DNA of 62,486 bases. It comes from Minisyncoccota bacterium (GTDB lineage: Bacteria; Patescibacteriota; Minisyncoccia; Phycocordibacterales; UBA9973). The translations under genes and the position numbers were made by a program. Location of the stretch: positions 1-62,486 of the forward strand of contig JAGORC010000001.1 of NCBI GenBank assembly GCA_018063015.1, given 5' to 3'. Below, piece by piece: positions 794 to 57,950 of this stretch (within the stretch, counting starts at the first letter, position 1; the number at the start of each line of letters is the position of its first letter). The notes below the pieces were generated by a model. It did no database searches. It worked only from the letters and a program-made list of their open reading frames with translations, and had not been told where the DNA came from.

Positions 794-1590
794 TACTTTA
801 TCTTAACATCATTTTCTAATTCTTTATCTAGCCTCTTTGCTTCTGACCAAGATAATTCATAAATCTTCTTCATTGCATCAGCTATCTCACTAGATTCTAT
901 TATAATCCCTAGTTTTTCTCGCCAAGATGCAATCATGACTTTATTATCATATATATTTATCTCTGGAATAAAATCGAACATCTTACGAGGTACCAGTGCT
1001 GATTCTCTCATCTCCTTGTTGTCGAAATTCTTTCTTTCTCTCCCTGTAGGAGAATCAGGTATTATTGCTCGTATTGCGATACCTTTACCAGCGCGACGCT
1101 TATAGTATTCAGGGAAGTATCCAGGAAGTCCCTCATGCATGTTCTCTACGCTAGCATATGCTCTTATTGGTTCAGAAGATGTAAGCGTATCTTCGTAAAC
1201 CCTCTCTATGCCATCTCTCCCCTCATAAAATGAAACCTTTGGTCTATCAGAAATATTGTGAATTGATTTTAATTCAGGAATAATTTTTCTGGCTTCTCTT
1301 ATAAATATTTGATCGTTCTCTATTTTCTTTAGTAGCATTTTCTCTATCTGATCTGGAGACAAAGCGACATATTCCTGTTTTGGTTCTTTACCAGAAACCT
1401 TAACTAATTCCTTAGATTCAAGTGATGCTAAGACGTGATAACCTGTTGGACGATTTATTCCTGCTTTCTTTGATATTTGTGTAACAGTCCCCTTGCCTAA
1501 AGAAAGTAAAGCTAGGTACACAGAAACTTCTTTATCTGAAAAACCAACAAATTCTAAGGTCTTTTTTATATTCAAATTCTCATTTTCCAT
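793..1590 (-). CDS. TrmB-family helix-turn-helix transcriptional regulator
   Basis: 265-aa ORF; N-terminal winged-HTH pattern (LGFSDKEVSVYLALLSLGKGTVTQISKKAGINRPTGYHVL) as in TrmB-type regulators. Overlaps the murI start by 1 nt. Minus-strand TATAAT at 1597-1602 lies 6 nt from the ATG. Confidence 0.7.
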   Translation of the reverse strand: MENENLNIKKTLEFVGFSDKEVSVYLALLSLGKGTVTQISKKAGINRPTGYHVLASLESKELVKVSGKEPKQEYVALSPDQIEKMLLKKIENDQIFIREARKIIPELKSIHNISDRPKVSFYEGRDGIERVYEDTLTSSEPIRAYASVENMHEGLPGYFPEYYKRRAGKGIAIRAIIPDSPTGRERKNFDNKEMRESALVPRKMFDFIPEINIYDNKVMIASWREKLGIIIESSEIADAMKKIYELSWSEAKRLDKELENDVKIK

Positions 1591-1703
1591 AAATCCATTA
1601 TATTTTAACCCCTAAACTTTGTCAATGACTGTCAACAAAATAGACATATAAGTTTTAAAGCTTCTAGAATAAGGATTCTATTGATATTATTTGACCAAAT
1701 AAT

Positions 1704-1732
1704 TTGACATTTTGTATAAATAGATATATCAT
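1704..1732 (+). promoter_or_regulatory. sigma70-type promoter of the Cys-rich protein gene
   Basis: -35 TTGACA 1704-1709, 17-nt spacer, -10 TATCAT 1727-1732; the ATG at 1739 is 6 nt downstream. Confidence 0.55.
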
Positions 1733-1738
1733 TTGTGT

Positions 1739-3418
1739 ATGAAAAAACAATGCAAATCTTGCCAGAAAGACTTTGAAATACGAAAAGAAGATTTAAATTT
1801 TTACAGTCAAGTTAATACTCCTCCTCCCTTAGATTGTCCAGACTGTAGAGTTATGCGAAGGCTGGCTTGGAGAAATGAAAGGACATTTTATAAAAGAGAC
1901 TGTGATCTATGCAAGAAAAGCATGGTGTCGTTGTATTCTCCCACTAGTCCATTTACAGTGTACTGTCATGAATGCTGGTGGAGTGACAAGTGGGATCCAA
2001 GAGATTATGGAATAGACTACAACCCTAATAAGGGATTTCTGGAACAATACAGTGAGTTGCAAAAGAGGGTTCCACGACTTGCTCTAATGATGCTAAATTC
2101 AGTGAGAAGTGAATATACAAACGGCGCATCCGACAATAAAGACTGCTACCTTATTTTCGCTGCAGAATACAATGAGGATTGTATGTATAGTAGATTAATT
2201 CAGCGTTGCAAGAACTGCTTAGACTGCTCAATGATTCATGATTCTGAATTGTGCTATGAATGCGTAGATGTAAGGAAATGCTTCAAATGTTTCTTCTCAC
2301 AAGAATGCCAGGACTCAAGTGATTTAATATTCTGCTACAACATGAGAAACTCCAACAACTGCCTATTCTGTGTTAATGGAAGAAATATCTCTAATTCAAT
2401 TTTAAACCAGAAATACTCAAAGGAGGAATTCGAAAACAAAAAAGGCGAGATATTCTCTAGCTATGAGAGTATAGAACAGGCAAAGAAGGAATTCGAAGAA
2501 CTAAAGAAGAAATCGATAGTTAAGTATGCATCTCAGACTAAGTGCAATAATGTAACAGGAGATTACCTACACAACTGCTATGATGGAGTGCTTCTTTTCG
2601 ACACATCAGACACCAAAAACTGTTCTTATATGGCAGACGTAGAAGACTCCATAGATAGTATGGACTGCAACAATTTTTATTATAAAAATGAACTATGTTA
2701 CAACATGATGGGCATATTACAAAGTAGTAAATGCTCAAACTGCGCATATGTATTCTATTGTAACGAGGTAGAGTACTCTGAAAACTGTCACAACCTAACA
2801 AGCGCCATTGGATGCAACGCTGTTCGTAAAGGTGAATACATGATATTAAACAAAAATTACTCAAAAGAAGAATTCCAGAAGATAAAACAACAAATTAAAG
2901 ACAGTATGGTGAGTGAAGGAATCTATGGCCAATTTTTTCCACCTTCCCTGTCTCCTTTCGGATTTAATGAGACATTAGGTTATGACCATTACCGAATATC
3001 AAAGAACGAAGCAGTAGAAAAAGGCTTTAATTGGCAAAACGAAATGTCAGGTACATATAAAAAAGAAACAATCCCTGAAGATAAAATACCTAGAATCATA
3101 TCAACAGTTAATGAAGATATTCTAAATGAGATTTTCGCATGTAAGGATTGTGGTAAAAATTTTAGACTAACTAAAGGAGAATTGAGTTTCTATAAAAGAA
3201 TGAATCTACCTATCCCGCACAAGGACTTCGAATGTAGGCACAAAGATAGAACAGCAAAGAGAAACCCCCGTAAACTATGGCATAGATCATGTATGTGTGA
3301 AGTAAAAAGCCACACCCATGGAGAAACAAATTGTACTAACGAATTTGAAACCGCCTACTCCCCAGAGCGCGCTGAAAAAGTTTTCTGTGAGACTTGCTAC
3401 CAACAAGAAGTGTATTAA
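1739..3418 (+). CDS. cysteine-rich multi-zinc-ribbon protein, function unknown
   Basis: Long ORF (ATG at 1739 preferred over TTG at 1733). Homologous N- and C-terminal CxxC zinc-ribbon modules (CKSCQKDFEI..FY..PPPLDCPDCR versus CKDCGKNFRL..FY..LPIPHKDFECR) flank two blocks of closely spaced Cys repeats. Confidence 0.75.
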   Translation: MKKQCKSCQKDFEIRKEDLNFYSQVNTPPPLDCPDCRVMRRLAWRNERTFYKRDCDLCKKSMVSLYSPTSPFTVYCHECWWSDKWDPRDYGIDYNPNKGFLEQYSELQKRVPRLALMMLNSVRSEYTNGASDNKDCYLIFAAEYNEDCMYSRLIQRCKNCLDCSMIHDSELCYECVDVRKCFKCFFSQECQDSSDLIFCYNMRNSNNCLFCVNGRNISNSILNQKYSKEEFENKKGEIFSSYESIEQAKKEFEELKKKSIVKYASQTKCNNVTGDYLHNCYDGVLLFDTSDTKNCSYMADVEDSIDSMDCNNFYYKNELCYNMMGILQSSKCSNCAYVFYCNEVEYSENCHNLTSAIGCNAVRKGEYMILNKNYSKEEFQKIKQQIKDSMVSEGIYGQFFPPSLSPFGFNETLGYDHYRISKNEAVEKGFNWQNEMSGTYKKETIPEDKIPRIISTVNEDILNEIFACKDCGKNFRLTKGELSFYKRMNLPIPHKDFECRHKDRTAKRNPRKLWHRSCMCEVKSHTHGETNCTNEFETAYSPERAEKVFCETCYQQEVY

Positions 3419-3456
3419 AAAACTATTTTTTGTTAATATAAGATAAAATCAAAAAC

Positions 3457-3555: not shown

Positions 3556-3582
3556 TTAGTCCTACTAATCACTTCTTTTTTT
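3549..3582. terminator. hairpin terminator shared by convergent gene ends
   Basis: 12-bp perfect stem GAAGTGATTAGT / ACTAATCACTTC with a 3-nt loop, followed by T7 on the plus strand. The stop codons of the 3457 ORF and of cca lie inside the two arms. Confidence 0.6.
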
Positions 3583-5071: not shown

Positions 5072-5079
5072 TTTTCTGT

Positions 5080-5153: not shown

Positions 5154-5279
5154 TCTTGTTACTTTTAAGACTATAATTATATATTTTTATTGGGTATATT
5201 GCAATTTTATCTCATAATATCCTTTAAAGTAAGGATATTATGATAATTTTTATATATAAGGTATAATTTTAATCACACT

Positions 5280-5981: not shown

Positions 5982-6000
5982 TATAATCTCGATTACTTTT

Positions 6001-12461: not shown

Positions 12462-12482
12462 AAATTATGCTATATTCTATGG

Positions 12483-14402
12483 ATGGATCATTTGAAAGAT
12501 CTTAATCCAAAACAGAGAGAAGCGGCACTTCACAAAGAAGGCCCTCTTTTGATTGTAGCGGGAGCAGGAGCAGGAAAAACTAAAACTATAACCCACAGAA
12601 TACTAAATTTAATAAAAGAAGGAGTCTCCCCAAATAATATTTTGGCTGTTACATTTACCAACAAAGCTGCTAAGGAGATGAGAGACCGTATAGTGAAAAG
12701 CATAGAGAATATTACCAAAGGCCAAGACTCTACTCCATTTATTAGCACGTTCCATTCTTTAGGGGTTTATATAATAAAAGAAAATGCTAGAGCCCTGGGA
12801 TTGAATAAATATTTCAGTATTTTAGATGAAGGTGATTCAATAAGTATAATAAAGGAAATTTTAAAACAGAAAAGCATAGACCCTAAACAATACGAACCTA
12901 AAAAAATAAAAAATGTTATAAGCCGGGAAAAAGGTAAATTTACAAATGAAGAAGAATACAAAGCTACCCAGAATAATTTCTTTGGGCAACTAGTAGGGGA
13001 AGTTTGGAAAGAATATGAATCAAGAAAAAACAAAGAAAACTCTCTGGATTTCGATGATCTATTGTTAAAATCAGTAAAACTTCTAAAAGAGAATGAAGAA
13101 GTAAGGAAGTCTTATCAAGATAGATGGAAATATATACATATAGACGAGTATCAGGACACAAACGAAGTGCAATACCTGATGTGTAAGTTATTGACTGGAG
13201 ATACTAGAAACATCTGTGTTGTAGGTGATGCAGATCAAAATATTTATTCATGGAGAGGTGCTAATCTAAAAAATATATTGAACTTCGAAAAAGATTACCC
13301 AAATACAAAAATAGTTCTACTTGAAGAAAACTATAGATCTACAAAAAATATTATAGAGGTAGCAAACCATATAATAAAAAAGAACAAATACAGACCAGAA
13401 AAAAATCTATTCACCAAAAACAAAGATGGGGAGAAGATTGGTCTATATGAAGCGCTCGACGAAGGTGACGAAGCAGATTTTGTAGCAAGCAAAATAATAG
13501 AGTTGAAAGATAGTGGGGAAGAAGAAATAGCAGTTTTGTATAGAGCTAACTTTCAATCACGAGCTCTAGAAGAAGCAATGCTAAGATACAACATCCCTTA
13601 TCAAGTTTTAGGAACAAAGTTCTTTGAAAGAAAAGAAGTAAAGGATACCTTAGCTTACCTGAGAGCATCTATGAATAGAGAGAATTTAGCAGACATAAAA
13701 AGAATAATAAATTTCCCAGCACGTGGCATAGGTAAGGTAACTCTATTGAAAATTTTTAGTAACGATACAGAAGAACTACCAATAAAAATGAAATTGAAGA
13801 TTAATAAATTTTATGAAACTCTTGATGAGATTAGAGAGAAGATAAAAACAACAAAGCCTAGTGAAGTAATAAAATTTATTATAAAAAAATCTGGTATAGA
13901 GCAGGAACTCTTAAACGGCACTGACGAAGATAGGGAAAGATTAGAAAACGTAAAAGAACTTGCTACTCTAGCAATAAAATATGACAATCTAGAAAATGGC
14001 CTTGGGATAGAGAAGCTAATAGAAGATGCTTCGCTGGCCTCAGACCAAGATAGTCTTATGGTAACAGGAGAGGTAAGAGAAAAATCGTTAGGGGTTAAGC
14101 TAATGACAATCCATGCTTCAAAAGGTCTTGAATTTAATTATGTATTTATAACGGGACTTGAAGATGGATTATTCCCTCACGAAAGAGGAGGTGACACCTT
14201 ACCAGAAGATCAGGAAGAAGAAAGAAGGCTCTTCTATGTAGCTCTGACTCGTGCAAAAGAAAAACTATTCTTGAGTTTTGCAAATTTCCGTACAATATTC
14301 GGGTCTAGACAGATAAATACTCCTTCAGAATTCATAACTGATCTTCCTAGAGATTTACTAGACGAAGAAGGAGTAAATAAAATAAAAACAATTTATATAT
14401 AA
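12483..14402 (+). CDS. pcrA: UvrD/PcrA-type ATP-dependent DNA helicase
   Basis: 639-aa ORF; Walker A GAGAGKTKT, DEYQDTN, VGDADQNIYSWRGA, TIHASKGLEF motifs of SF1 UvrD/Rep helicases. Confidence 0.9.
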   Translation: MDHLKDLNPKQREAALHKEGPLLIVAGAGAGKTKTITHRILNLIKEGVSPNNILAVTFTNKAAKEMRDRIVKSIENITKGQDSTPFISTFHSLGVYIIKENARALGLNKYFSILDEGDSISIIKEILKQKSIDPKQYEPKKIKNVISREKGKFTNEEEYKATQNNFFGQLVGEVWKEYESRKNKENSLDFDDLLLKSVKLLKENEEVRKSYQDRWKYIHIDEYQDTNEVQYLMCKLLTGDTRNICVVGDADQNIYSWRGANLKNILNFEKDYPNTKIVLLEENYRSTKNIIEVANHIIKKNKYRPEKNLFTKNKDGEKIGLYEALDEGDEADFVASKIIELKDSGEEEIAVLYRANFQSRALEEAMLRYNIPYQVLGTKFFERKEVKDTLAYLRASMNRENLADIKRIINFPARGIGKVTLLKIFSNDTEELPIKMKLKINKFYETLDEIREKIKTTKPSEVIKFIIKKSGIEQELLNGTDEDRERLENVKELATLAIKYDNLENGLGIEKLIEDASLASDQDSLMVTGEVREKSLGVKLMTIHASKGLEFNYVFITGLEDGLFPHERGGDTLPEDQEEERRLFYVALTRAKEKLFLSFANFRTIFGSRQINTPSEFITDLPRDLLDEEGVNKIKTIYI

Positions 14403-15181: not shown

Positions 15182-15238
15182 TTTCCTATTATCAACAGCA
15201 TGTCTTGTTGACTTTGATTAAAGTGTTATAATTTAAAC

Positions 15239-16180
15239 GTGCAATTGAATTTAACATCTAATAACAAGCGGATTCTATTCACTATCGCATTTGTAGTGAT
15301 AGTGGTTTTACTTTTCTCACTCAATACTAAATCAACAATCAAGAACCAAGCTGGTCAAAGTACGGGATTGGTCTATGGAGATAAGACTCTAAGTGATGTT
15401 GTAAACACAGATTCTGATCTAGACGGAGTGCTTGATTGGGAAGAAGGACTATGGGGTACCGATGCACTAAAAACAGATTCTGATGGTGACGGCGTACCAG
15501 ATGGAACAGAGATAAGTAAGCTAAAGGGAGTAGAAGCAATAGATGACGGTAGTATACTTGAAGAAGAAGAGAATTTAACAGAGACTGACAAATTCTCAAG
15601 AGAAGTATTCACTACAGTAGCCACACTAAGCCAGTCAGGAACATTAACCCAAGAAACACTGGATGGTTTAGGATCTTCTTTGGCACAACAGATAGAGAAC
15701 CCTACAGTAAGTAAGGTGTTTTTATTTAGTGACATAAAGACGACAGGCAACAATACCGCTGAGTCCGCAAGAATATATTTAAATTCCCTAGACAGCATAT
15801 TCAAACAACAACCTCTATTATATAAGAATGGTTATGATGGAATGGTATATACAATAAATGTAACTTTTTCTGATGTTCTACAGAAATACCTATTAGATCC
15901 AGAGAGCGACAAGGCTTTCTCTGGTCTTGCTCAAATAACAAAAGAAATAGAAAGTACCATTAAATCAATGAAGGGGCTCACAGTTCCTAGTGGCTTATCT
16001 GTTATACATCTAGATATACTAAATAGTTTCCAGAGAATCTTAGAAAATATGACAAACACTAAGCTAGCAATAAAAGATCCTATTGTTGCTATGGGTGGAG
16101 CAAGTAAGTATGAAGAAAATGGTATGGCACTAGAGAGTGCATTAAATAGATTAAAGGTAGCAGTAGGTCAAACTAATTAA
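15239..16180 (+). CDS. membrane-anchored secreted protein with thrombospondin-type-3-like Ca-binding repeats
   Basis: 313-aa ORF (GTG start). N-terminal TM helix (ILFTIAFVVIVVLLF). DxDxDGxxDxxE-type repeats DSDLDGVLDWEE / DSDGDGVPDGTE at about 15410-15512. TATAAT at 15227-15232. Confidence 0.6.
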   Translation: MQLNLTSNNKRILFTIAFVVIVVLLFSLNTKSTIKNQAGQSTGLVYGDKTLSDVVNTDSDLDGVLDWEEGLWGTDALKTDSDGDGVPDGTEISKLKGVEAIDDGSILEEEENLTETDKFSREVFTTVATLSQSGTLTQETLDGLGSSLAQQIENPTVSKVFLFSDIKTTGNNTAESARIYLNSLDSIFKQQPLLYKNGYDGMVYTINVTFSDVLQKYLLDPESDKAFSGLAQITKEIESTIKSMKGLTVPSGLSVIHLDILNSFQRILENMTNTKLAIKDPIVAMGGASKYEENGMALESALNRLKVAVGQTN

Positions 16181-17853: not shown

Positions 17854-17910
17854 TTTATTTCATAATTAGTTGCTATAATTTATAGTAATAATCCTTCTTA
17901 GGATTGATTA

Positions 17911-20328
17911 ATGAAAAGTAGATTTTCTTATATTTTAATATCCGTATTAATGCTAGGATTTCTCCTTGCACCTTTTTCTCCTTTAATAATAGTTGATGGT
18001 GAGAAGATTGCTATAAAAATAGAGTCTAGAAAAGCTTTTGCTGAAACAAGATGGTACTACGAGTTCCAGCCACCTCTCGGTGGTAGCAACGTTATGTCTG
18101 TCGGATATGAAACAGAGACAGAATGTAACGCAGCCTCTCAGGTTACAAGCCAATCAGGTGGAACAATAATTAAAAATTGTTTTTCTTCAGACACAACACC
18201 AACAGCAACCGGTTCAGAATCTGAGAGCAATGGAACTGAGACAGGTCTCAAGGCAATGCTTAGAACATGTGGAATATCTAGAGGCTCATTCATCATAGGG
18301 TGTTTTATACAAATAATGTATTTCCTTTTTGTATCAATACCATCTTGGCTAATGCTTATGACTGCTCAGGTATTTGATACTGCTGCTGCTCTGACATTAA
18401 GTGATCAAGTTTACAGATCTGGGTTTATAAGCACAATTTGGACGATAGTAAGAGACTTCTCTAATGTATTTTTTATATTAATTCTACTTTATGCAGCGTT
18501 CCAAGTAATACTAGGACTCGGGCATGGTGGGGGAAAGAAGATTGTGGCTTCGGTGATACTTATCGCCTTAATGGTAAACTTCAGTTTATTTATTTCAAGG
18601 GTGGTAGTAGACGCTGGTAATGTATTAGGTCTTATTTTCTATAATAAAATATCAACAGACCACGTAAAATATCAACCAGTGAGTGATCCAACGCTAACAG
18701 GTGTAAAAGAGAAGGATTTAGCTGGAGCTCTGGTATCTAGTTTTGCAGTAAATAACTTTTTTAGCGCAGACTTCTTTAATGGATTAAAGAGTGACCCGGA
18801 CAACTGGGAAACTGCCGGATGTACAGGCGGTTGTGTAGGAAGAACAATAAATAATTGGCTTGCTGCGTCACTTATTGTCACATACGGTTTAATCGCATAC
18901 TCATTAGCTTGGATATTCTTAATTGTGGGAATAAGTTTTATTGGAAGACTGGCTACACTAATAATGCTTATGGTGATATCGCCCATAGCATTTGTCACAG
19001 CGACTGTTCCGACATTTAAAGGCATAGACACTATTGGTTTTGATAGTTGGCTGAAGAAACTTTTCCAGACATCATTCGTTGTTGCTGTGTTTATGGCGAT
19101 ACTTTACTTAGTTTCAGAAATATTAAAGGCGGATATATTTGATTCTTACAGTGTTGGACAAGAAGAACTGGGAATAGTGGCTAGGTTGATGCTCATATTC
19201 GTTCCTGCACTTTTGATACTTATCTTTTTGAAGAAAGGAAAGGAATATTCTGTAAAAGCTTCAGGTGAAATAACTGGTGCCCTTATTAGTGGCGCAAAGA
19301 TGCTAGGAGGACTTGCACTTGGTGGAGCAGCCCTTGGTGCTGCAGGTGCTGCCGTCATAGGAAGAAACACTGTTGGCAGTACTATGAACATGATGAAAAC
19401 AAGCCAAACCACAAGAGATGCCCATCTGAAAAATCTTAACTGGAACCCGAAAACTTGGGGTAAGGCACTTCAAGCTGGAATAGTAAACCAAACAGTAAAA
19501 GGTAGAGGAAAGGGTGTAAAAGACGTTCCTACTGGTACTTATGACATTAAAACTAGAAAAGAAATTATGGCAAGCAGAGAAGGTTCTAACTGGTTACGAG
19601 ATCAAATGTTGGGAGGAAATGCAAAGGATAAACAAAACAAAAAAGACAAATCTCACGCTACTCATGCATTAGATGAAGCAGCTGATAAAGTAGAGAAGGG
19701 TAAGAAATACTCAGATCTTGATACGAGTGGACAAAATTCAGCAAAAGAAAAAGCAACAAAATCAGAAATGGCTAAATTCTTATTTAATGGTAAAGATTTA
19801 TCAAAGTTAAGTGCTGGAGAAAATGCAATGATAAATAAAGCCGCAAACAATGATGGAACAATTAATAATGCTATATTTGATAGATACGCACAAAATCTAG
19901 GAAAAGACCCTAATAAATTCCACGATGGAGTACATATGGAAAAGGCCTACTTTAGTAAAGATACTCAGAGTACTGTCGGGCAAGCTGCAGGATGGGCTGG
20001 AAGAGGAGCAGCTTCTGGTACATATGATGTAAGGAACCTAAAGGGTGGAGCACTAACTGCAGCTGGTCTCGCTGCAGCTATGTTTGGACTAGCTCCTATT
20101 ATGGGAGCAGTGTTTGCAGCACATGCTTCAGGAGGATTGCGTTCAGGACTACAGAAGTTAACTGGTGTTGATCACGGAGACAGCAAGAAAGATTTCTTGA
20201 AGGACTTAAAGGCGACACTGGACTCAACATTGAAGAATCTAAAATTCGATATCAAGGTTACAGGGGACGGACATGGTGGAGGTGATGATCATAGCGCTGG
20301 ACATGGTGGAGGAGGAGGACATCATTAA
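17911..20328 (+). CDS. VirB6/TrbL-like polytopic membrane protein with long cytoplasmic tail
   Basis: 805-aa ORF. Signal/TM, Cys-containing ectodomain, multiple hydrophobic spans with TrbL/VirB6-like layout, Lys-rich C-terminal about 300 aa ending in a Gly/His tail. Located in a cluster with VirB4 and PrgI-like genes. TGCTATAAT at 17871-17879. Confidence 0.55.
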   Translation: MKSRFSYILISVLMLGFLLAPFSPLIIVDGEKIAIKIESRKAFAETRWYYEFQPPLGGSNVMSVGYETETECNAASQVTSQSGGTIIKNCFSSDTTPTATGSESESNGTETGLKAMLRTCGISRGSFIIGCFIQIMYFLFVSIPSWLMLMTAQVFDTAAALTLSDQVYRSGFISTIWTIVRDFSNVFFILILLYAAFQVILGLGHGGGKKIVASVILIALMVNFSLFISRVVVDAGNVLGLIFYNKISTDHVKYQPVSDPTLTGVKEKDLAGALVSSFAVNNFFSADFFNGLKSDPDNWETAGCTGGCVGRTINNWLAASLIVTYGLIAYSLAWIFLIVGISFIGRLATLIMLMVISPIAFVTATVPTFKGIDTIGFDSWLKKLFQTSFVVAVFMAILYLVSEILKADIFDSYSVGQEELGIVARLMLIFVPALLILIFLKKGKEYSVKASGEITGALISGAKMLGGLALGGAALGAAGAAVIGRNTVGSTMNMMKTSQTTRDAHLKNLNWNPKTWGKALQAGIVNQTVKGRGKGVKDVPTGTYDIKTRKEIMASREGSNWLRDQMLGGNAKDKQNKKDKSHATHALDEAADKVEKGKKYSDLDTSGQNSAKEKATKSEMAKFLFNGKDLSKLSAGENAMINKAANNDGTINNAIFDRYAQNLGKDPNKFHDGVHMEKAYFSKDTQSTVGQAAGWAGRGAASGTYDVRNLKGGALTAAGLAAAMFGLAPIMGAVFAAHASGGLRSGLQKLTGVDHGDSKKDFLKDLKATLDSTLKNLKFDIKVTGDGHGGGDDHSAGHGGGGGHH

Positions 20329-21312: not shown

Positions 21313-21343
21313 ATCACTAGGAACTAAAGAATTTTTGAATTAT

Positions 21344-21362
21344 AATAAGAGTGACTCTTATT
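21344..21362. promoter_or_regulatory. 19-bp perfect palindrome overlapping a -10 box (candidate operator)
   Basis: AATAAGAGT-G-ACTCTTATT at 21344-21362. TATAAT at 21341-21346; the ATG of the PrgI-like gene is at 21374. Confidence 0.4.
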
Positions 21363-21373
21363 AAGAGCTTAGT

Positions 21374-24291: not shown

Positions 24292-24327
24292 CTTTATTTA
24301 GAGAACGATTTATCTTATAATTAGAGA

Positions 24328-25308
24328 ATGCGACTAAAGGCTTTAATACTTGGTTTTATATCTCTATCTTTTTTCTTAACTGGAGGGATTGTTTTTGCAC
24401 AACAAGAATCAACAAGTATTATAGTTAATACTATACCTATAAATCCTGCACCAGGAGAAGATGTTAGTGTTTACATATCAAGCTACTCAGAGAATCTTGA
24501 TATTGCCACTATGACTTGGTTTGTTGATGGTAAAAGTGTTTTATCTGGTGTAGGAGAAAAGTCTCTTATATTAAAAGCTCCTAATTTTGGACAGGAAACC
24601 AAGGTTGTTATAAAGGTTAAATCTCAAACTGAAGAATCTCAAGTAAGCACGGTTTTAAAGCCTTCTTATATGGTACTCCTATGGGAAGCAACGGATTCTT
24701 ATGTACCCCCTTTCTACAAAGGCAAGGCTTTACCTTCCCCAGACAGTTTTGTTAAGGTTGTGGCTCTGCCAGAGATTACCTCTGGTGGGGTAAAATTAGA
24801 TCCTAAAAATATATCTTATACTTGGCAAAAAGATTTTAACAATATGCCAACTGATTCTGGTTATGGAAAGAACTATTTTATATACAAGAATGATTATTTA
24901 GAAAATTCTAATAATATCGGTGTGACTGCTTATTTAACAGACCAACAATATTCATCGACAGGAAGAATCGACATAAGTATGTACCAGCCATTTATAGACC
25001 TATATCGGAAAGATTTGAAATTAGGTATAGATTGGAACAATGTATTAAACAATAGTCACTTCATAAAAGGTAGTGACATTATAGTTGCATCGCCGTATTT
25101 TATATCACCCAAAGACATAAGAAGGCCAGATTTAATTTTTAATTGGGCTATAAACAACACAACTGTTGACAATACGGGCGTAAATAAAAATATGCTTCCA
25201 TTACAAACAGAAGAAGGAGTATCTGGTTCTGCTAACGTAAAACTAGAAGTAAATAACTTAAATAAAATATTCCAAACAGCAGAGAAGGAAATTAATATAT
25301 CATTTTAA
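24328..25308 (+). CDS. secreted protein, function unknown
   Basis: 326-aa ORF; signal peptide (LKALILGFISLSFFLTGGIVFA) and beta-rich sequence. TATAAT at 24316-24321 lies 6 nt from the ATG. Confidence 0.55.
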   Translation: MRLKALILGFISLSFFLTGGIVFAQQESTSIIVNTIPINPAPGEDVSVYISSYSENLDIATMTWFVDGKSVLSGVGEKSLILKAPNFGQETKVVIKVKSQTEESQVSTVLKPSYMVLLWEATDSYVPPFYKGKALPSPDSFVKVVALPEITSGGVKLDPKNISYTWQKDFNNMPTDSGYGKNYFIYKNDYLENSNNIGVTAYLTDQQYSSTGRIDISMYQPFIDLYRKDLKLGIDWNNVLNNSHFIKGSDIIVASPYFISPKDIRRPDLIFNWAINNTTVDNTGVNKNMLPLQTEEGVSGSANVKLEVNNLNKIFQTAEKEINISF

Positions 25309-29527: not shown

Positions 29528-29562
29528 TTCATCATTCTATATGAAAACTACTTAAATTACAA

Positions 29563-30123: not shown

Positions 30124-30258
30124 TTATGCTGAGATTTTAGCTCGACCCTTTCTTCTTCTTCTTAAAAGGACGTTTTTCCCGTTTGTAGTCTTAGATCTAG
30201 ATAGAAAACCGTGGGCCTTTGCTCTTTTTCTCTTGTTGGGACTGTATGTTTGTGACAT
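30124..30258 (-). CDS. rpmH: 50S ribosomal protein L34
   Basis: Not in the ORF track (44 aa). Manual translation [44 protein letters not shown] matches the L34 consensus. Confidence 0.9.
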
Positions 30259-30264
30259 GTTGCT

Positions 30265-30293
30265 AGTATACCCATACATAATAAAAAAGTCAA
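30265..30293 (-). promoter_or_regulatory. canonical promoter of rpmH (leaderless)
   Basis: Minus strand: -35 TTGACT (30288-30293), 17-nt spacer, -10 TATACT (30265-30270), 6 nt, ATG at 30258. Confidence 0.7.
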
Positions 30294-30319
30294 AAATGAA
30301 AAATGTGTGTTGAAATACT

Positions 30320-30341
30320 TTATCAACAGATTATCAACAGA
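30320..30341 (+). promoter_or_regulatory. two tandem DnaA-box-like 11-mers
   Basis: Exact direct repeat TTATCAACAGA x2 (30320-30330, 30331-30341). TTATCAACA differs by one base from the TTATCCACA consensus. Lies between the divergent rpmH and dnaA promoters. Confidence 0.6.
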
Positions 30342-30396
30342 GTTAGTAAGATTTTACTTATTCACTAAGGAGGGGAGAATAGTATAATATTCCACT

Positions 30397-35837: not shown

Positions 35838-35878
35838 TATTGTTTAATCATAACAAAAAAAATGCTATAATTCGAGCG

Positions 35879-37093
35879 ATGAAAGTTATAACTGATAAAG
35901 ATAAAATTAAGAATTTATTAGAAAGAGGAGTTGAAAATATTCTTGTAAAAGAAGAATTAGAGAAGAAGCTCCTCTCAGGGAAGAGGCTTAGAGTTTATCT
36001 CGGCATAGACCCTACTGGTCCTACGCTACATATGGGCCACGCTATTCCACTTAAAAAGCTTAGAGAATTTCAAGATTTAGGACATGAAGTAATTTTGCTT
36101 ATGGGAGACTTTACTGCTCAGATAGGAGACCCAACAGATAAATTAGCTTTAAGAAAAAAGCTAACTCACAAAGAAGTTTTAAATAACTTAAAAAAATATA
36201 AAAAACAATCCGAAATATTTCTTAAGTGGTCAGGAAGCAATAAGGCACAAATAAAATTTAATTCAAAATGGTTGGCGAAGATGAAATTAGAAAACATATT
36301 AGAATTAGCATCATTAATGACAGTAGATCAAATGATGAAGAGAGACATGTTTGATCGAAGAAGCAAAGAAGGCAAGCCAATTTTTATACATGAGTTTATG
36401 TATCCTTTAATGCAGGGGTATGACAGCGTAGCAATGAAGGTTGACGTTGAGATTGGTGGGAATGATCAAACATTCAATATGCTCACAGGACGTCACCTCA
36501 TGTCTCAAATGATAAACACAAATAAATCAGTTGTAGCTACTAAGCTTCTAGAAGACAATACAGGTAAGAAAATGGGCAAGACAGAAGGCAATATGGTTAG
36601 TTTTGAAGATGGTCCAGTGGACATGTTTGGTAAGGTTATGAGCTGGAATGATTCCCTTATTCTTCCTGGGTTTGAATTGTGTACAGATGTTTCTCTTTCG
36701 GATATTGAATCAACAAAGAATGAATTAGAAAAAGGTAAAAATCCTAAAGAAATTAAACTTAAGCTAGCATTTGAAATTACTAAAGTTTATCACGGAGAAA
36801 AAAAGTCTCTTTTAGCTCAAGAAGATTGGATTTCTAAGTTTGAAAAGAAAGAAGCACCTAAAGAAGTAGAAGAAGTAGAAGGGGAGGGCCAACTTGCTAA
36901 GGTCTTGGTTATTAAAGGCATTGTAACTTCTAATTCAGAAGCTAGAAGACTCTTTGATGGAGGTGCTGTAACAAATATAACCGAAAACAAAAAAGTTAGT
37001 TCCAAAGAAGAAGTTAAGCAAGGTCATATCTATAAAATCGGTAAACATAAGTTTATAAAGATAACAATCAAAATAAGAAAACCCTCCGCCTAA
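35879..37093 (+). CDS. tyrS: tyrosine--tRNA ligase
   Basis: HIGH-type motif (LHMGHAIP), KMSKS-type motif (KMGKT), C-terminal S4 domain. ATG at 35879 preferred over TTG at 35840, because TGCTATAAT at 35863-35871 lies between them. Confidence 0.9.
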   Translation: MKVITDKDKIKNLLERGVENILVKEELEKKLLSGKRLRVYLGIDPTGPTLHMGHAIPLKKLREFQDLGHEVILLMGDFTAQIGDPTDKLALRKKLTHKEVLNNLKKYKKQSEIFLKWSGSNKAQIKFNSKWLAKMKLENILELASLMTVDQMMKRDMFDRRSKEGKPIFIHEFMYPLMQGYDSVAMKVDVEIGGNDQTFNMLTGRHLMSQMINTNKSVVATKLLEDNTGKKMGKTEGNMVSFEDGPVDMFGKVMSWNDSLILPGFELCTDVSLSDIESTKNELEKGKNPKEIKLKLAFEITKVYHGEKKSLLAQEDWISKFEKKEAPKEVEEVEGEGQLAKVLVIKGIVTSNSEARRLFDGGAVTNITENKKVSSKEEVKQGHIYKIGKHKFIKITIKIRKPSA

Positions 37094-40363: not shown

Positions 40364-42060
40364 TATTCTTCTAGTAGATCTACTACGCTTTTGACTTCGT
40401 CAATGGAGGTTACGCCATTTAGAATTTTTACAGCACCATCTTGTCGCATAGAAAGTATGCCTTGAGTGCTAGCTATCTTTTTTATTTCTCTTTCGCTTGG
40501 GTTTTCTGGAATTATTTTTTCTATACCCTCATCTGTTTTGATTGCTTCAAATATTCCTATCCTGCCCTTAAATCCAATACCATTACATTTATCACAGCCT
40601 ACTGGTTCATATAGCTTGAATGTTTTATTTTCATCTATCTTGTACTTTGTCAGATCTTTCCCTTCATTTTTCATTACTTGTAATATATTTTTCAGCAAAG
40701 CTGATTCTTCTTCGGTTACAGCTTTTTCTTTTTTACAATCAACACAGAGCTTTCTAACTAACCTCTGTGCTATTGATAAAGATAGGGAAGAAACCAGTAT
40801 TTTAGGGTTTATTTTCAAGTCGATTAATCTAGGTATAACACCTGCTGCGTTGTTGGTGTGTAGTGTTGAGAACACCATATGTCCAGTAAGAGCTGACTGG
40901 ATAGCTATTTCGGCTGTTTCTGCGTCTCTTATTTCTCCAACCATTATTACATCTGGATCTTGTCGTAGAGCACTACGTAATCCTTCGGCGAAACCGTAGC
41001 CCTTCTTGGAATTAGTTTGAGTTTGAGTTATTCCATCTAAGTGGTACTCTACTGGATCTTCTATGGTTATTATATTTATTTCAGTTGAATATATTTTTCT
41101 TAGAAATGCATAAAGAGTGGTTGTCTTTCCTGAGCCTGTTGGACCTGTGACCAATACTAGTCCATTAGGCTTAGCTATTTCTTCTTTTATTATAGAGAAT
41201 AAGTAATCTTCTATACCGATATCTTCTAGATCAACTTGAATAGATTTAGGATCAAGTATTCTCATCACGATTGCTTCCCCATAAGCTCCTGGAATTAAAG
41301 AAGAACGAATACTTATTTCTTCTTCTCCCTCCTGAATACTAAAACGTCCATCCTGAGCTGCTTTGGATGTTATTTTCATTCCTGATAACAATTTAATTCG
41401 AGAATTTATAAGATTATAAATTTCTGTATTTAAAATCATTATGTCTTGTAGTATTCCATCTAATCGGAATCTAAGTTTAGAATGTTCTTTTTCTGGCTCT
41501 ATGTGTATGTCTGATGCTTTTATAGATATTGCGCCAGCTAAGATTATTTCAAGAAGTCTAGAAATCTTGTGTGTTTGCTCCTTACCCATTTCAAGTGATA
41601 TGAGTTTTTCAATATCTTGCATCCTATTTATACTTTTTGCAGTGTCTCGGAGTATCTCTCCTGAGATTTCTAATCCTCCTACCTGACTACTTTCAGCCAT
41701 AGATATTTCTTGGTATCTTTCCCATACTTTCTCAAGAGATGCCATAGATGCCATATAGAACACAGGAACCATACTCTTTCTCTCGGTTCTTTCTTTTAAG
41801 CTAGCAAACAAGTCTTCGCTAGGGGATCTAACAGCTATGAAAATATTCTTTCCAGAAAGTTTAAAAGGAGCTACATTTAATTCCTTTGCATCTTTTTCAT
41901 CAATAATTCTCAAAGCTTCATTATCTACGCCGAGCCTTGATAAATTTATATAAGGTATTTTGTATTTTGATTCAGCTAACATCTCTACTAATTGCTCCTC
42001 CTCTTCTTTGCGGATGTCTTCTAGCTGTTTGTTTTGTGCTTCTTCGTCAAAAATTGCCAT
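40363..42060 (-). CDS. pilB: PilB/GspE-family type IV pilus / type II secretion ATPase
   Basis: 565-aa ORF; Walker A GPTGSGKTTT, Walker B/Asp box VIMVGEIRD, His box, tetracysteine CVDC..CDKC motif. Confidence 0.85.
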   Translation of the reverse strand: MAIFDEEAQNKQLEDIRKEEEEQLVEMLAESKYKIPYINLSRLGVDNEALRIIDEKDAKELNVAPFKLSGKNIFIAVRSPSEDLFASLKERTERKSMVPVFYMASMASLEKVWERYQEISMAESSQVGGLEISGEILRDTAKSINRMQDIEKLISLEMGKEQTHKISRLLEIILAGAISIKASDIHIEPEKEHSKLRFRLDGILQDIMILNTEIYNLINSRIKLLSGMKITSKAAQDGRFSIQEGEEEISIRSSLIPGAYGEAIVMRILDPKSIQVDLEDIGIEDYLFSIIKEEIAKPNGLVLVTGPTGSGKTTTLYAFLRKIYSTEINIITIEDPVEYHLDGITQTQTNSKKGYGFAEGLRSALRQDPDVIMVGEIRDAETAEIAIQSALTGHMVFSTLHTNNAAGVIPRLIDLKINPKILVSSLSLSIAQRLVRKLCVDCKKEKAVTEEESALLKNILQVMKNEGKDLTKYKIDENKTFKLYEPVGCDKCNGIGFKGRIGIFEAIKTDEGIEKIIPENPSEREIKKIASTQGILSMRQDGAVKILNGVTSIDEVKSVVDLLEE

Positions 42061-42138
42061 TGCATATAGAGTATAGCATTTTTAACTTAAAAATTAAGGT
42101 TTTATTTATCTTTGTGTTAATATGGTTTCATAAATAAA

Positions 42139-42585: not shown

Positions 42586-42602
42586 TGCTATAATCAGATT
42601 AA

Positions 42603-44996
42603 ATGGCAGACAAAAAAAGCACAAAAACCCTAGTATTGCTTGATTCTCACGCAATAATTCACCGAGCGTATCATGCGCTTCCTGATTTTTCTTCTTCTAA
42701 GGGTGAACCAACGGGAGCTCTTTATGGCCTAGCAAATATGCTCATGAAGATTATTGCAGATTTGAAGCCTGATTATATAGTTGCCTGTTATGACCTTCCA
42801 GAGAAAACATTTCGTCATGTTGCCTATGATGGGTATAAAGCAAAGAGAGCTAAGACCGACGATGCTCTAATACAGCAATTAGATAAATCTAGAAAGATAT
42901 TTGAAGCATTTAATATACCTATTTATGATGCTCCAGGGTTTGAAGCGGATGATGTTTTAGGAACAATTGTTGCTCAATTCAAAAACGACAAAGCAGTAAA
43001 GATAATAATAGCTTCTGGAGATATGGATACAATGCAACTCGTAGATAAAGACAAAGTACAGATTTATACTCTAAAGAAAGGTATCAATGACACAATTCTA
43101 TATAACGAAGAAAAGGTTATAGAGCGTTTCGGCTTTAAACCAGAATATATGCCTGACTATAAAGGAATGAGAGGAGACCCGTCAGACAATATTATAGGAA
43201 TAAAAGGAATCGGCGAGAAAACTGCAACTAACCTTATATTAAATTTTGGAACCATAGAAGAAATTTATAAAAAGATTAAGAAAGATCCAACCGCCTTAGA
43301 AAGTATAGGGATAAAAGGAAAAACCGCAGAACTAATAAAAAACAATGAAGAAGAAGCTTTATTTTCTAAAACATTGGCTAAGATACGAGGAGATGCTCCA
43401 ATAAATTTTAAATTACCAGAAAAAACATTCTGGGAAGAAGCAGATCTTAAGAAGATAGAAGAGTTATTTTCTATCTTCGAATTTCGAAGTCTGATTCCTA
43501 GAGTTAAGAGCTTCTTTAGTAAGAACGGATCTCAGTCTGAGACGAATACACTTACTTCCGCGTCTATGTTCGACACTGTAAAAGAAGAAGTAGAAGAGAA
43601 GGAACTACTTCAAGCATCTATTGCTCTATGGTTACTGAATTCTGATATACCTAACCCAAATTTAGAAGACATGCTTTTTTTCACCAAAACAAAAACCTTC
43701 AAAGATGCAAAAGAAGTTATATTTAATCAACTTTCAGAAAAAAACTTACTAAAAATATACGAAGAAATAGAATATCCGATTATAGATATAGTCCTAGGGG
43801 CTGGAGAGTACGGAATACTTATCGACCAAGATTATTTCTCTAAGCTGTCATTAGAATACCACACAGAGCTAGACAAGCTTACTAAGAATATATATAAAAT
43901 GGCAGGAACTGAATTCAATATAAATTCACCTAAACAACTTTCTCAAATTTTGTTTGAAAAATTAGGAATAAAATCAAGTAAAAAGAAAAATGCCAGTGGA
44001 TCCTTCTCTACTAAGATATCAATCTTAGAAGAATTAGAAGAAGAGAATGAAATAATAAAAGAAATAATGGCTTACAGAGAATTACAGAAACTTCTTTCTA
44101 CTTATGTTGATGTAATACCTAAGATGGTAAGCAATGATGGACGTCTTCATGCGAAGTTTATTCAACACGGTGCTTCAACAGGAAGATTCTCTTCTTCAGA
44201 TCCCAATCTTCAAAATTTACCAATAAAGACAGAACTAGGACGTAGAATACGTGACGGCTTTATTGCAGGGAAAGGGCAGAAGCTGTGCGCCTTTGACTAC
44301 TCTCAGATCGAGTTACGCATAGCGGCGCTTCTTTCAAAAGATAAAAAGATGACTGATATATTCAAAGACAGAAAAGACATTCATGCAGGAGTAGCATCAT
44401 TTGTATTTGGAGTTCCTATTGATGAAGTGACTTCTGAAATGAGAAGGAAGGCGAAGGTTATAAACTTCGGTATTATTTATGGAATGGGAGTAACAGCCCT
44501 TCGTAAAAATCTAGGAGGTACACGTGAAGAAGCTCAGAAATTTTATGACAATTACTTCAAGCAGTTTGAAGGAGTTAGAAATTATTTAGATAGTATTAAA
44601 GATTTCGCTAATAAAAATTCCTATACAGAGACATTATTCGGAAGAAAGAGATATTTCCCAAATATTAAATCTAGGATTCCTTTTATAAAAAATATGGCAG
44701 AACGAACAGCTACCAATGCCCCGATTCAAGGAACAGCAGCAGACGTAATAAAGCTAGCTATTAGATATGCCGATGAAGACTTGAAGAAAAATGGTTTAAA
44801 AGATAGAGTGCACTTAGTCCTACAGGTTCATGATGAACTTGTTTATGAAATAGAGGAAAGCGTTCTAAAAGAAGCAGAACAAATAATAAAAGATGCCATG
44901 GAAGGAGTTCTAGAACGTTCATTCCTAAGACTTAAAACAGATATTCCACTATTGGTTCATTTTGGTTCAGGTAATAATCTAGGGGAAGTAAAATAG
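42603..44996 (+). CDS. polA: DNA polymerase I
   Basis: 797-aa ORF; 5' nuclease domain (LLDSHAIIHRAYHA, GIKGIGEKTA); polymerase motifs DYSQIELRI, RRKAKVINFGIIYG, QVHDELV. TGCTATAAT at 42586-42594 lies 8 nt from the ATG. Confidence 0.95.
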   Translation: MADKKSTKTLVLLDSHAIIHRAYHALPDFSSSKGEPTGALYGLANMLMKIIADLKPDYIVACYDLPEKTFRHVAYDGYKAKRAKTDDALIQQLDKSRKIFEAFNIPIYDAPGFEADDVLGTIVAQFKNDKAVKIIIASGDMDTMQLVDKDKVQIYTLKKGINDTILYNEEKVIERFGFKPEYMPDYKGMRGDPSDNIIGIKGIGEKTATNLILNFGTIEEIYKKIKKDPTALESIGIKGKTAELIKNNEEEALFSKTLAKIRGDAPINFKLPEKTFWEEADLKKIEELFSIFEFRSLIPRVKSFFSKNGSQSETNTLTSASMFDTVKEEVEEKELLQASIALWLLNSDIPNPNLEDMLFFTKTKTFKDAKEVIFNQLSEKNLLKIYEEIEYPIIDIVLGAGEYGILIDQDYFSKLSLEYHTELDKLTKNIYKMAGTEFNINSPKQLSQILFEKLGIKSSKKKNASGSFSTKISILEELEEENEIIKEIMAYRELQKLLSTYVDVIPKMVSNDGRLHAKFIQHGASTGRFSSSDPNLQNLPIKTELGRRIRDGFIAGKGQKLCAFDYSQIELRIAALLSKDKKMTDIFKDRKDIHAGVASFVFGVPIDEVTSEMRRKAKVINFGIIYGMGVTALRKNLGGTREEAQKFYDNYFKQFEGVRNYLDSIKDFANKNSYTETLFGRKRYFPNIKSRIPFIKNMAERTATNAPIQGTAADVIKLAIRYADEDLKKNGLKDRVHLVLQVHDELVYEIEESVLKEAEQIIKDAMEGVLERSFLRLKTDIPLLVHFGSGNNLGEVK

Positions 44997-45020
44997 GTTT
45001 TTTGATGTTATAATTGATAT

Positions 45021-45512
45021 ATGAACGGCAAATACAAAGAAGGAAAAGAAGACCACCCACTTCATCATAAATTCAAGGTGCATCATGTACTAGCTCAGTC
45101 TTATTCTGTAGCATTCTTTATGTTTTTAATAGGAGTTTTACTTGATTTAATATTTCCTATTAAGATCTTCCATGATTCCTATATGACGCCAATAGGGTTA
45201 AGTGTGCTGTTTTTTGCATCTATAATTATCTTCTGGGCTCAGAGAACATCTAGGGATTTAAGAAAGATAGATGAAATAACAAAGGAATCCTTTTGTCGCG
45301 GACCCTACTGCTATTCTAGAACCCCTACTCATTGGGGATTGTTCCTTCTCTTACTTGGTTTCGGTATTGTAGCCAATGCTTCATTTGTTATTCTTACAAC
45401 TATAATATCTTCTTTAATATCCAAAATAGTTTTTCTAAAGAGGGAAGAGAGGATACTTGTAGATAAATACGGAGCTCCTTACCTAGAATATCAAAAGTCT
45501 GTAAAGTTCTAA
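45021..45512 (+). CDS. ICMT/PEMT-like membrane methyltransferase family protein
   Basis: 163-aa polytopic ORF; GPY.YSR.P.H.G and REE..L...YG..Y..Y pattern of isoprenylcysteine carboxyl methyltransferase-like proteins. Confidence 0.65.
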   Translation: MNGKYKEGKEDHPLHHKFKVHHVLAQSYSVAFFMFLIGVLLDLIFPIKIFHDSYMTPIGLSVLFFASIIIFWAQRTSRDLRKIDEITKESFCRGPYCYSRTPTHWGLFLLLLGFGIVANASFVILTTIISSLISKIVFLKREERILVDKYGAPYLEYQKSVKF

Positions 45513-46161: not shown

Positions 46162-46185
46162 AAATCTGCTATTATCAAACAACAT

Positions 46186-46844: not shown

Positions 46845-46882
46845 ATTATAGCATTGAATAATATAAATGTTATAATAATATT

Positions 46883-47023
46883 ATGAAATTAAACAAAACA
46901 CTCATTTACTTTCTGGTGTTTACCGCTGTAAGTTCATTTCTAGCTTATAAAATAGTAGTTAAGGCATATGATGGAACATTCGACTATTCCTCATATGAGG
47001 CTAAGATAATAAACTCTAAGTAA
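46883..47023 (+). CDS. possible 46-aa single-pass membrane protein
   Basis: MKLNKTLIYFLVFTAVSSFLAYKIVVKAYDGTFDYSSYEAKIINSK. TGTTATAAT at 46868-46876 lies 6 nt before the ATG, matching the local leaderless pattern. Confidence 0.35.
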   Translation: MKLNKTLIYFLVFTAVSSFLAYKIVVKAYDGTFDYSSYEAKIINSK

Positions 47024-53467: not shown

Positions 53468-53471
53468 AAAT

Positions 53472-53945: not shown

Positions 53946-54320
53946 TTAATCGCTGAAATTTATTTCAAAGCTATACATTCCCATTCCGCACAATCCTTTA
54001 AATTTTTCCCCATTTTTAAAAGTTCCAATATCTATTTCTGTCTCTCCTGTTTGAGGTAAAATTTTCTGAAACCCAATAGAAGGTATTACAAGCGAAGCAG
54101 AGCAGTCGTATACGCCATTTGTTTTTACTATTACCTTAGAAGGGATTCCTGCTTTTGCTTCTGTTACTTGAGGATAGTACCCACCCCCAGCTTCAATTTT
54201 TATATATTGGACATTGTTTCTTATTTCAACGCTTTGAACTCCGTCCGTATCTTTACTGAATATAATACCAAGAGCAACTATAAGACCTATAGAAATGATT
54301 ATTAAAGATTTTTTATTCAT
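53946..54320 (-). CDS. membrane-anchored small beta protein, possibly cupredoxin-like metal-binding
   Basis: 124-aa ORF; N-terminal TM, beta-rich domain with Cys..Cys-Gly-Met-Gly-Met near the C-terminus. Last gene of the copper operon. The family call is tentative. Confidence 0.35.
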   Translation of the reverse strand: MNKKSLIIISIGLIVALGIIFSKDTDGVQSVEIRNNVQYIKIEAGGGYYPQVTEAKAGIPSKVIVKTNGVYDCSASLVIPSIGFQKILPQTGETEIDIGTFKNGEKFKGLCGMGMYSFEINFSD

Positions 54321-54338
54321 AAAATTATTATAACAAAG

Positions 54339-55346: not shown

Positions 55347-55349
55347 AGT

Positions 55350-57647: not shown

Positions 57648-57651
57648 AGAA

Positions 57652-57915
57652 TTACTTCCTCTTTAATTGATAAACTTTTAAAATTTCTTTTGTAGCTTTT
57701 TCTGTTTGACCTTGCTTTATTTGGTTTACCACACAGTGCCCGAGATGCCCTTCAAGTAAAACATCTTCTATATTTGATAGTCCTTGTTTTACTGCAGAAG
57801 TTTGGGTAATTACATCTACACAATAAGTTCCATTTTCAACCATAGTCTGCAACCCTCTTACTTGTCCTTCAATAATTTTTAATCTACGAATTATTTTCTC
57901 TTTACTTGTTTTCAT
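57652..57915 (-). CDS. csoR: CsoR/RcnR-family metal-sensing repressor
   Basis: 87 aa from the ATG at 57915 (the track starts at TTG 57921). RLKIIEGQVRGL, Cys in YCVDV plus H..C in HLGHC (C-H-C copper ligand pattern). Confidence 0.85.
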   Translation of the reverse strand: MKTSKEKIIRRLKIIEGQVRGLQTMVENGTYCVDVITQTSAVKQGLSNIEDVLLEGHLGHCVVNQIKQGQTEKATKEILKVYQLKRK

Positions 57916-57921
57916 GCTCAA

Positions 57922-57950
57922 AGCATATACCCCCCTGGGGGTATAGTCAA
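57922..57950 (-). promoter_or_regulatory. csoR-copA promoter with CsoR-type operator in the spacer
   Basis: Minus strand: -35 TTGACT (57945-57950), 17-nt spacer, -10 TATGCT (57922-57927), 6 nt, ATG at 57915. Palindrome TATACCCCC-CT-GGGGGTATA (57926-57945) fills the spacer. Confidence 0.75.

Follow-up and report, generated by a model that had tools for sequence, protein, structure and literature searches.

How is a start codon chosen in a genome where promoter -10 boxes stand almost against the first codon of many genes and Shine-Dalgarno (SD) motifs are scarce? The question arose from contig JAGORC010000001.1, whose 62,486 nucleotides (nt) constitute the window analysed here (contig C28 of a metagenome-assembled genome (MAG) of 618,675 bp in 38 contigs, with a GC content of about 35% and an estimated completeness of 97.8%). 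Among public genomes, the dnaA loci most similar to that of this MAG (76-88% identity) are mostly labelled Candidatus Nomurabacteria, Paceibacterota or Parcubacteria, and some Saccharibacteria or Burkholderiales; judged by its sequence, the source genome is a member of the Parcubacteria (Candidatus Nomurabacteria; Paceibacteria), ultra-small bacteria of the candidate phyla radiation (CPR)/Patescibacteria. About a quarter of all its genes carry a normal -10 box 6-9 nt before the start codon, an arrangement that implies leaderless mRNAs. We consider it probable that sigma-70 promoters set against start codons yield leaderless mRNAs in this Nomurabacteria genome, and that the interaction between SD and anti-SD has been lost.

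Boxes at a short distance from start codons

Genes were called naively as 650 non-overlapping open reading frames (ORFs) of at least 70 amino acids (aa), the first ATG being taken as the start; 642 of them could be scored. A strong -10 box was defined as TAnnnT with at least five of six matches to TATAAT, and transcription start positions were throughout deduced from sequence. An initial reading of the window, made from the letters alone and referred to below as the sequence-only reading, had listed 14 pairs of a -10 box and a start codon, all of which were recovered at their positions (gap of 6 nt in ten pairs, 7 nt in one, 8 nt in two and 9 nt in one). The modal gap of 6 nt equals the canonical distance from the -10 box to position +1, so that in the ten pairs that have it the A of the ATG would fall on the expected +1. 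That reading had made its case depend on a peak at 6-9 nt in the genome-wide distances between -10 boxes and starts, and the peak is present: strong boxes were found at gaps of 6, 7, 8 and 9 nt in 84, 35, 20 and 16 of the 642 ORFs, respectively, compared with 3-12 at each of the other positions from 0 to 44, which amounts to a roughly tenfold excess over neighbouring positions in the same sequences. Of 817 TATAAT cases considered independently of gene calls, 49 had an ATG at offset 6, compared with about 12 for other offsets. Within the window by itself, the pattern TAWAAT-N6-ATG was only weakly enriched (seven matches, five of them real gene starts, against 3.65 expected; 9 of 100 shuffles reach seven), and the same TAWAAT pattern with a 12-nt gap occurred three times for an expectation of 3.62. 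Pattern statistics confined to the window are underpowered, and the genome-wide test is needed. Two low-GC relatives from other lineages, G139 (31% GC) and G052 (37% GC), had no gap-6 peak when run through the same script; AT-richness is therefore not the explanation.

The 155 strong cases were aligned on the box and inspected for features that had played no part in their selection. T (68%) and G (54%) predominate at the extended -10 positions, and a complete TGn is present in 75 of the 155 boxes (48%), whereas about 6% would be expected from base composition. In the -35 region, at a spacer of 17 nt, the frequencies of T, T and G are increased, and at least four of six matches to TTGACA were found in 48 of the 155, compared with 27 in an offset control. 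The base at -1 is T or C in 64% of the cases and that at +1 is A, in agreement with the pyrimidine-purine preference known for transcription starts. Extended TGn elements at many boxes and a -35 element at 16-17 nt at several, both pointed out for the window by the sequence-only reading, have their genome-wide counterpart in the TGn frequency and the TTG enrichment. A position weight matrix (PWM) scan of 638 ORFs at a 5% false-positive threshold marked 177 (28%) as leaderless-type. The proportion depended on the position of the gene: 39% of divergent genes were positive, as were 53% and 41% of those separated from a same-strand neighbour by 11-40 nt and 41-100 nt, respectively, but only 15% of the genes within 10 nt of an upstream stop codon. 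The genome encodes a group-1-like sigma-70 factor with region 3, which reads TGn.

Boxes of the same kind also precede tRNA genes. The three cases cited by the sequence-only reading, which had put them 10-13 nt before the mature 5' end, are TATAAT 12 nt before tRNA-Arg(tcg) (5262..5267, plus strand), TATAAT 13 nt before tRNA-Pro(tgg) (5982..5987, plus) and tgcTATTAT 10 nt before tRNA-Lys(ttt) (46170..46175, plus); genome-wide, a strong -10 box lies 10-17 nt before 9 of 34 tRNAs. A tRNA-Pyl(cta) reported by ARAGORN at C8:10395-10472 is probably a false call, given its weak D arm and its position within a 423-aa ORF; TAG is the stop codon of 106 of the 638 ORFs.

The arrangement is conserved. 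A strong -10 box is found 6-10 nt before dnaA in 62 of 80 species-level relatives, with 8 nt as the commonest gap (35 species). Its sequence, tagTATAAT, hardly ever varies, whereas almost every species has a different 6-9 nt spacer; in a hand count of upstream sequences at genus level, 19 of 23 loci had TATAAT or TATACT at a distance of 6-9 nt from the dnaA ATG. What is conserved at the putative dnaA promoter, in the manner of a phylogenetic footprint, is thus the box together with its distance and not the sequence of the spacer. All eight sampled genomes of the order show the peak, which comprises 9-24% of their ORFs and exceeds background 3- to 9-fold. The TGn and -35 elements, the dependence on operon position and the conservation support the view that the boxes behave as sigma-70 promoters.

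Shine-Dalgarno motifs and the 16S rRNA 3' end

The sequence-only reading had also proposed that initiation in this organism is largely independent of SD sites. No GGAGG-like motif stands within 15 nt of any of the seven operon-internal starts that it listed; the exceptions that it named, AGGA before 17911 and AGGTGA before 26951, are as it described them. Genome-wide, the SD cores GGAG, GAGG and AGGA occur in 8% of the stretches from -20 to -3, compared with 11% in a control stretch. G is depleted from -12 to -1 before starts (9-11%, against a background of 18%) within an A-rich context, and predicted pairing to the canonical anti-SD is weaker before starts (-3.68 kcal/mol) than inside genes (-4.33 and -4.93 kcal/mol).

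The MAG contains no 16S gene, and we examined ten 16S 3' ends from the same genus (G002, G006, G007, G013 and G017) and the same order (G021, G026, G028, G029 and G156). CCUCCU is absent from all ten, which end in ...GGAWTAATTCAATTTGAA, ...CGTGGAWTAATTCAATTTGAA or a variant instead of GGATCACCTCCTT. CCTCC was kept in 28 of 30 other Patescibacteria sampled; within the same class, G054 also lacks the anti-SD motif and G139 retains it. With SD motifs not enriched, no gain in duplex energy and no CCUCC in the 16S of relatives, the proposal of SD-independent initiation is supported. A replacement interaction with the new 16S tail (GGAUUAAUUCAAUUUGAA) was considered and rejected, the duplex energy being -3.07 before starts and -3.06 and -3.07 in the controls. 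The replacement tail of the relatives (L001-L009, L056) holds a small palindrome, which reads TTCAATTTGAA in most, TTCCGAAGGAA in G028 and TTCCAATTTGGAA in G156; a mini-hairpin with compensating changes in this tail was a hint to which we gave no weight.

The ribosomal protein uL1 is missing from the genus and order: TIGR01169 matched in none of their 21 genomes, this MAG included, and in all 14 control genomes, ten times above the curated cut-off. S1 is represented by a short homologue of 378 aa, and bS21 gave sub-threshold matches only. Loss of initiation factor 3 (IF3) as an adaptation was rejected, since infC is retained in 21 of 21 genomes.

How closely does the promoter arrangement follow the loss of the anti-SD? 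The eight sampled genomes of the order show no SD enrichment, and three CCUCC-keeping genomes (G139, G052 and G155) have no leaderless peak by the same script. In four other genomes that keep CCUCC the gap-6 peak is present, sharp in G056 and G062 and weaker in G091 and G106, and all four are enriched in SD motifs (20-41% against 8-15%). A strict coupling of anti-SD loss to the leaderless architecture was therefore only partly upheld, these four genomes having both CCUCC and the peak. Leaderless promoters are thus wider in the phylum than anti-SD loss, and they may have preceded it in Patescibacteria.

One contig of the same MAG outside the window, C27 (4,941 bp), carries a run of small same-strand genes, eight of them with textbook SD sites such as AAAGGAGGAA 7-9 nt before the ATG; it holds 8 of the 29 SD-bearing ORFs of the genome, and one of its proteins matches phrog_98. 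C27 has the appearance of a phage-like fragment whose background uses SD sites; it would be either mis-binned or foreign DNA within a lineage that lacks the anti-SD.

Individual start sites of the window

Ten of the 14 listed starts have no in-frame alternative upstream, and these start codons are hard to shift because in-frame stops lie 3-24 nt upstream. In profile coordinates, the N-termini of the listed genes lie at or near position 1 of their NCBIfam profiles: residues 1-44 of the rpmH product align to positions 1-44 of 44, residue 7 of DnaA falls on position 1, residue 4 of PcrA on position 2, residue 7 of TyrS on position 4, residue 8 of the PolA 5'-exonuclease on position 2, residue 7 of the TrmB-like protein on position 6 and residue 3 of the CsoR/RicR-like protein on position 6.

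Several of the promoters are divergent. On the minus strand, TATAAT precedes by 6 nt the ATG of a TrmB-like helix-turn-helix regulator of 265 aa (1588..1602), for which an in-frame stop 24 nt upstream leaves no alternative start; its divergent partner is TTGACA-17-TATCAT, 6 nt before the ATG of a 559-aa Cys-rich protein (1727..1741, plus). Likewise, TTGACT-17-TATACT stands 6 nt before the ATG of rpmH (bL34, 44 aa; 30256..30270, minus; profile 1-44 of 44), and tagTATAAT 8 nt before that of dnaA (30383..30399, plus), whose start agrees with the profile and whose box is the one conserved in 62 of 80 species. No more than 138 bp (30259-30396) separate the divergent rpmH and dnaA genes, which both have leaderless-type promoters; the G-rich tract AAGGAGGGGAG is found there upstream of the -10 box of dnaA, outside the predicted transcript, and the intergenic stretch is probably a replication-origin neighbourhood. 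At tyrS, tgcTATAAT precedes the ATG by 7 nt (35866..35881, plus; supported by the profile and a PWM score of 11.9), and on the opposite strand tgtTATGAT lies 9 nt before the ATG of an 838-aa protein (35835..35852, minus; PWM score 5.5), a pair missing from the original list.

Other boxes occupy very short intergenic gaps. The extended -10 element tgcTATATT, 6 nt before the ATG of a PcrA/UvrD helicase with a profile-checked start (12471..12485, plus), lies in a gap of 21 nt in its entirety; tgcTATAAT, 8 nt before the ATG of polA (42589..42605, plus; profile-checked, PWM score 11.9), in one of 17 nt; and tgtTATAAT, 6 nt before the ATG of a 163-aa membrane protein (45009..45023, plus), in one of 24 nt. 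TTGACT-17-tgtTATAAT precedes by 6 nt the GTG of a 313-aa membrane protein (15227..15241, plus), the first gene of a cluster resembling a type IV secretion system (T4SS), with no alternative start upstream. A second GTG case, absent from the original list, is that of a 154-aa ORF (start 61344) behind tagTATAAT at 6 nt (61342..61356, minus), and the list had also lacked tgtTATAAT 6 nt before the ATG of a 124-aa ORF (54318..54332, minus; PWM score 10.6). The remaining listed pairs with an ATG comprise TATAAT at 6 nt for a 326-aa secreted protein (24316..24330, plus; PWM score 9.1), TAGAAT at 6 nt for the YidC insertase (29525..29539, minus; NCBIfam profile), tgcTATACT at 9 nt for a 565-aa protein (42058..42075, minus; detected by the PWM), tgtTATAAT at 6 nt for a putative short ORF of 46 aa (46871..46885, plus), and TTGACT-17-TATGCT at 6 nt for a CsoR/RicR-type repressor (57913..57950, minus; profile). 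In this last promoter a palindrome, TATACCCCCAGGGGGGTATA (57926-57945, minus), fills the spacer between -35 and -10, and a 765-aa gene comes next; the palindrome looks like a candidate operator through which the repressor would act on its own promoter, that is, by autoregulation. Finally, the first ATG of the gene at 46844 (minus) adjoins tgcTATAAT directly (gap 0; 46835-46856), and a second in-frame ATG 9 nt downstream fits the leaderless spacing; the true start of this gene may be 46835.

The statement of the sequence-only reading that first genes are leaderless proved too general: roughly 35-50% of the non-coupled genes qualify, and leadered cases are found at 17911 and 21374. In the first of these, tgcTATAAT lies 31 nt before the ATG (17874..17913, plus) and the leader contains a hairpin, aatcct-tctt-aggatt (17890-17905), that includes the "AGGA" mentioned above; in the second, TATAAT lies 27 nt before the ATG (21341-21373, plus) and the leader hairpin is aagag-tga-ctctt (21347-21359). 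Both leadered genes belong to the T4SS-like cluster, and the two hairpins may be regulatory or stabilising 5' structures. Among 457 same-strand pairs of neighbours, 231 genes start within 10 nt of the upstream stop or overlap it; stop-to-start distances cluster from -8 to +10, with peaks at +1 to +4, -1, -4 and -8, a packing whose tightness would fit termination-reinitiation. This leaves 264 of the 638 ORFs that belong neither to the leaderless type nor to the tightly coupled genes; where such an ORF has sufficient space upstream, a strong promoter-like site lies 10-150 nt before it in about half of the cases. Alternative starts do not rescue the 264, ten of which would gain a strong box compared with three in the control, and k-mers enriched before non-leaderless starts were generic AT-rich words and stop codons only, with no positioned motif.

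Proposed initiation without SD sites and competing explanations

The motif and its exact spacing, the promoter-like elements that accompany it, its dependence on the position in the operon, its conservation, the lack of SD motifs and the anti-SD loss of relatives are observed; from them we infer where transcription starts and how ribosomes are loaded. An ordinary sigma-70 promoter, often TGnTATAAT and with or without a TTGACA-like -35 element, would head many transcription units. RNA polymerase would start at the A of the start codon or 1-3 nt before it, and on the resulting leaderless mRNA the ribosome would recognise the 5'-terminal AUG, sometimes GUG, without pairing between mRNA and rRNA. 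Operon-internal genes, mostly within 10 nt of the upstream stop or overlapping it and set in A-rich, G-poor surroundings, would probably be reached by termination-reinitiation or by loading on unstructured RNA. In the lineage the interaction between SD and anti-SD would have been lost, in keeping with relatives' 16S tails that lack CCUCC and mRNAs that lack SD motifs.

Several points weigh against this scheme. The loss of the anti-SD is deduced from relatives, as the MAG has no 16S gene of its own. IF3, by which leaderless mRNAs are disfavoured in E. coli, is retained in 21 of 21 genomes. With gaps of 8-9 nt, there may be leaders of 1-3 nt rather than none. The gene calls are naive, any ORF of at least 70 aa being accepted and its first ATG taken as the start, and translation of the 264 of 638 ORFs that are leadered and SD-less is left unexplained by a leaderless model.

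Could the same pattern have another origin? If it were a by-product of AT-rich intergenic DNA (35% GC) and of the choice of starts, with hexamers falling near ATGs by accident, a window count of seven against 3.65, reached by 9 of 100 shuffles, would be unsurprising; such an accident is already contradicted by the roughly tenfold genome-wide peak, by its absence from the low-GC genomes G139 and G052 under the same script and by a dnaA box conserved in 62 of 80 species while flanks and spacer diverged, and we give it practically no credence. Alternatively, the TATAAT-like element might be a translation signal on leadered mRNAs, an A/U-rich non-SD site of the Bacteroidota type that binds the ribosome or S1, and not a promoter. 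The A-rich, G-poor stretch before all starts and the 378-aa S1 homologue would suit such a site, yet the element has exactly the sigma-70 -10 consensus, carries TGn and a -35 TTG at promoter spacing, and also precedes tRNA genes; moreover, it is found at 15% of operon-internal starts compared with 39-53% elsewhere, whereas non-SD sites precede internal genes too (PMC6028130). We regard this explanation as very improbable.

A reading that leaves the promoters intact is that they are real but minor or conditional, the genes being expressed mainly from read-through or upstream transcripts and leaderless mRNAs making up a small share. Gaps of 11-40 nt are too short for a terminator, so that upstream transcripts must read in, and in 34 cases the box falls within the 3' end of the gene upstream. 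Divergent first genes (rpmH/dnaA, 1590/1739 and 35837/35879), on the other hand, have no other upstream space for a promoter, and the box and distance of dnaA are strongly conserved; we hold predominant read-through to be unlikely. Leaderless mRNAs from abutting promoters, combined with loss of the SD interaction, thus remain our preferred explanation. A further-reaching version would have the whole Nomurabacteria-containing order use fully SD-free, mitochondria-like initiation, with leaderless 5'-AUGs alone at the heads of units, reinitiation or loading on A-rich unstructured RNA alone at downstream cistrons, and leaderless promoters older than the anti-SD loss, which they would have made tolerable. 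This version is conceivable, and we lean slightly against it as it stands.

Mammalian mitochondria and haloarchaea have leaderless mRNAs and make little or no use of SD sites, and the mitochondrial small-subunit rRNA has no anti-SD. The mRNAs considered here would similarly start at a 5'-terminal AUG; they differ in being made by a bacterial RNA polymerase from bacterial promoters, in their tightly packed polycistronic operons and in the presence of IF3. Among bacteria, the nearest likeness is group C of GeneMarkS-2, in which the first genes of about 25-50% of operons have a Pribnow box at 6-8 nt from their starts (Lomsadze et al. 2018, PMC6028130). That group consists mainly of Actinobacteria (Mycobacterium, Streptomyces, Corynebacterium) and Deinococcus-Thermus, whose other genes use SD sites (PMC6028130). 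The box at 6-9 nt, its tie to non-coupled genes (39-53% against 15%) and the share of first genes of leaderless type (about 35-50% here, 25-50% there) are alike. Group C, however, keeps SD sites for its remaining genes and the anti-SD in its 16S, whereas here SD motifs are at or below background, the relatives' 16S lacks CCUCC, and the genome is AT-rich and ultra-small. With the Bacteroidota (group B) the present genome shares the rarity of SD sites and A-rich sequence before starts; in group B the motif stands before every gene, operon-internal ones included, and cannot act as a promoter (PMC6028130), whereas the motif described here is a sigma-70 -10 box that depends on operon position, and the anti-SD, kept in Bacteroidota, is gone.

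A Parcubacteria subgroup without anti-SD, overlapping the group that lacks uL1, has been described (Tsurumaki, Saito, Tomita, Kanai 2022, RNA 28:1041, PMC9297842). Our genome belongs to the same lineage and agrees with that subgroup in the missing uL1 (21/21 genomes of the genus and order); the 16S 3' ends of its relatives lack CCUCCU (10/10). The word "leaderless" occurs nowhere in that paper, which says nothing on how initiation then works (PMC9297842); the promoter next to the start codon is a complementary observation from the mRNA side. Full-text searches of the accessible literature turned up no paper that connects leaderless mRNAs to Parcubacteria, Patescibacteria or CPR, the TM7x transcription-start paper (PMID 35975994) lying outside their scope. 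A bacterial genome rich in leaderless genes represents a known mode of initiation, and the loss of the anti-SD is already published for the group; it is for the mRNA-side architecture that we found no paper in this lineage. The mechanism is well known, and the result was largely foreseeable from the anti-SD loss.

For these very abundant uncultivated bacteria, the prediction of start codons depends on the model of initiation; gene finders based on SD sites will misplace starts here, so that a leaderless-aware model is advisable. To the question that Tsurumaki et al. left open, namely how starts are selected without an anti-SD, the proposed answer is promoters that abut start codons together with tightly packed cistrons. 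If this is true and the 5' ends are confirmed, the lineage would provide a natural bacterial case of complete SD-independence, useful for the study of SD loss and for comparison with mitochondria and archaea.

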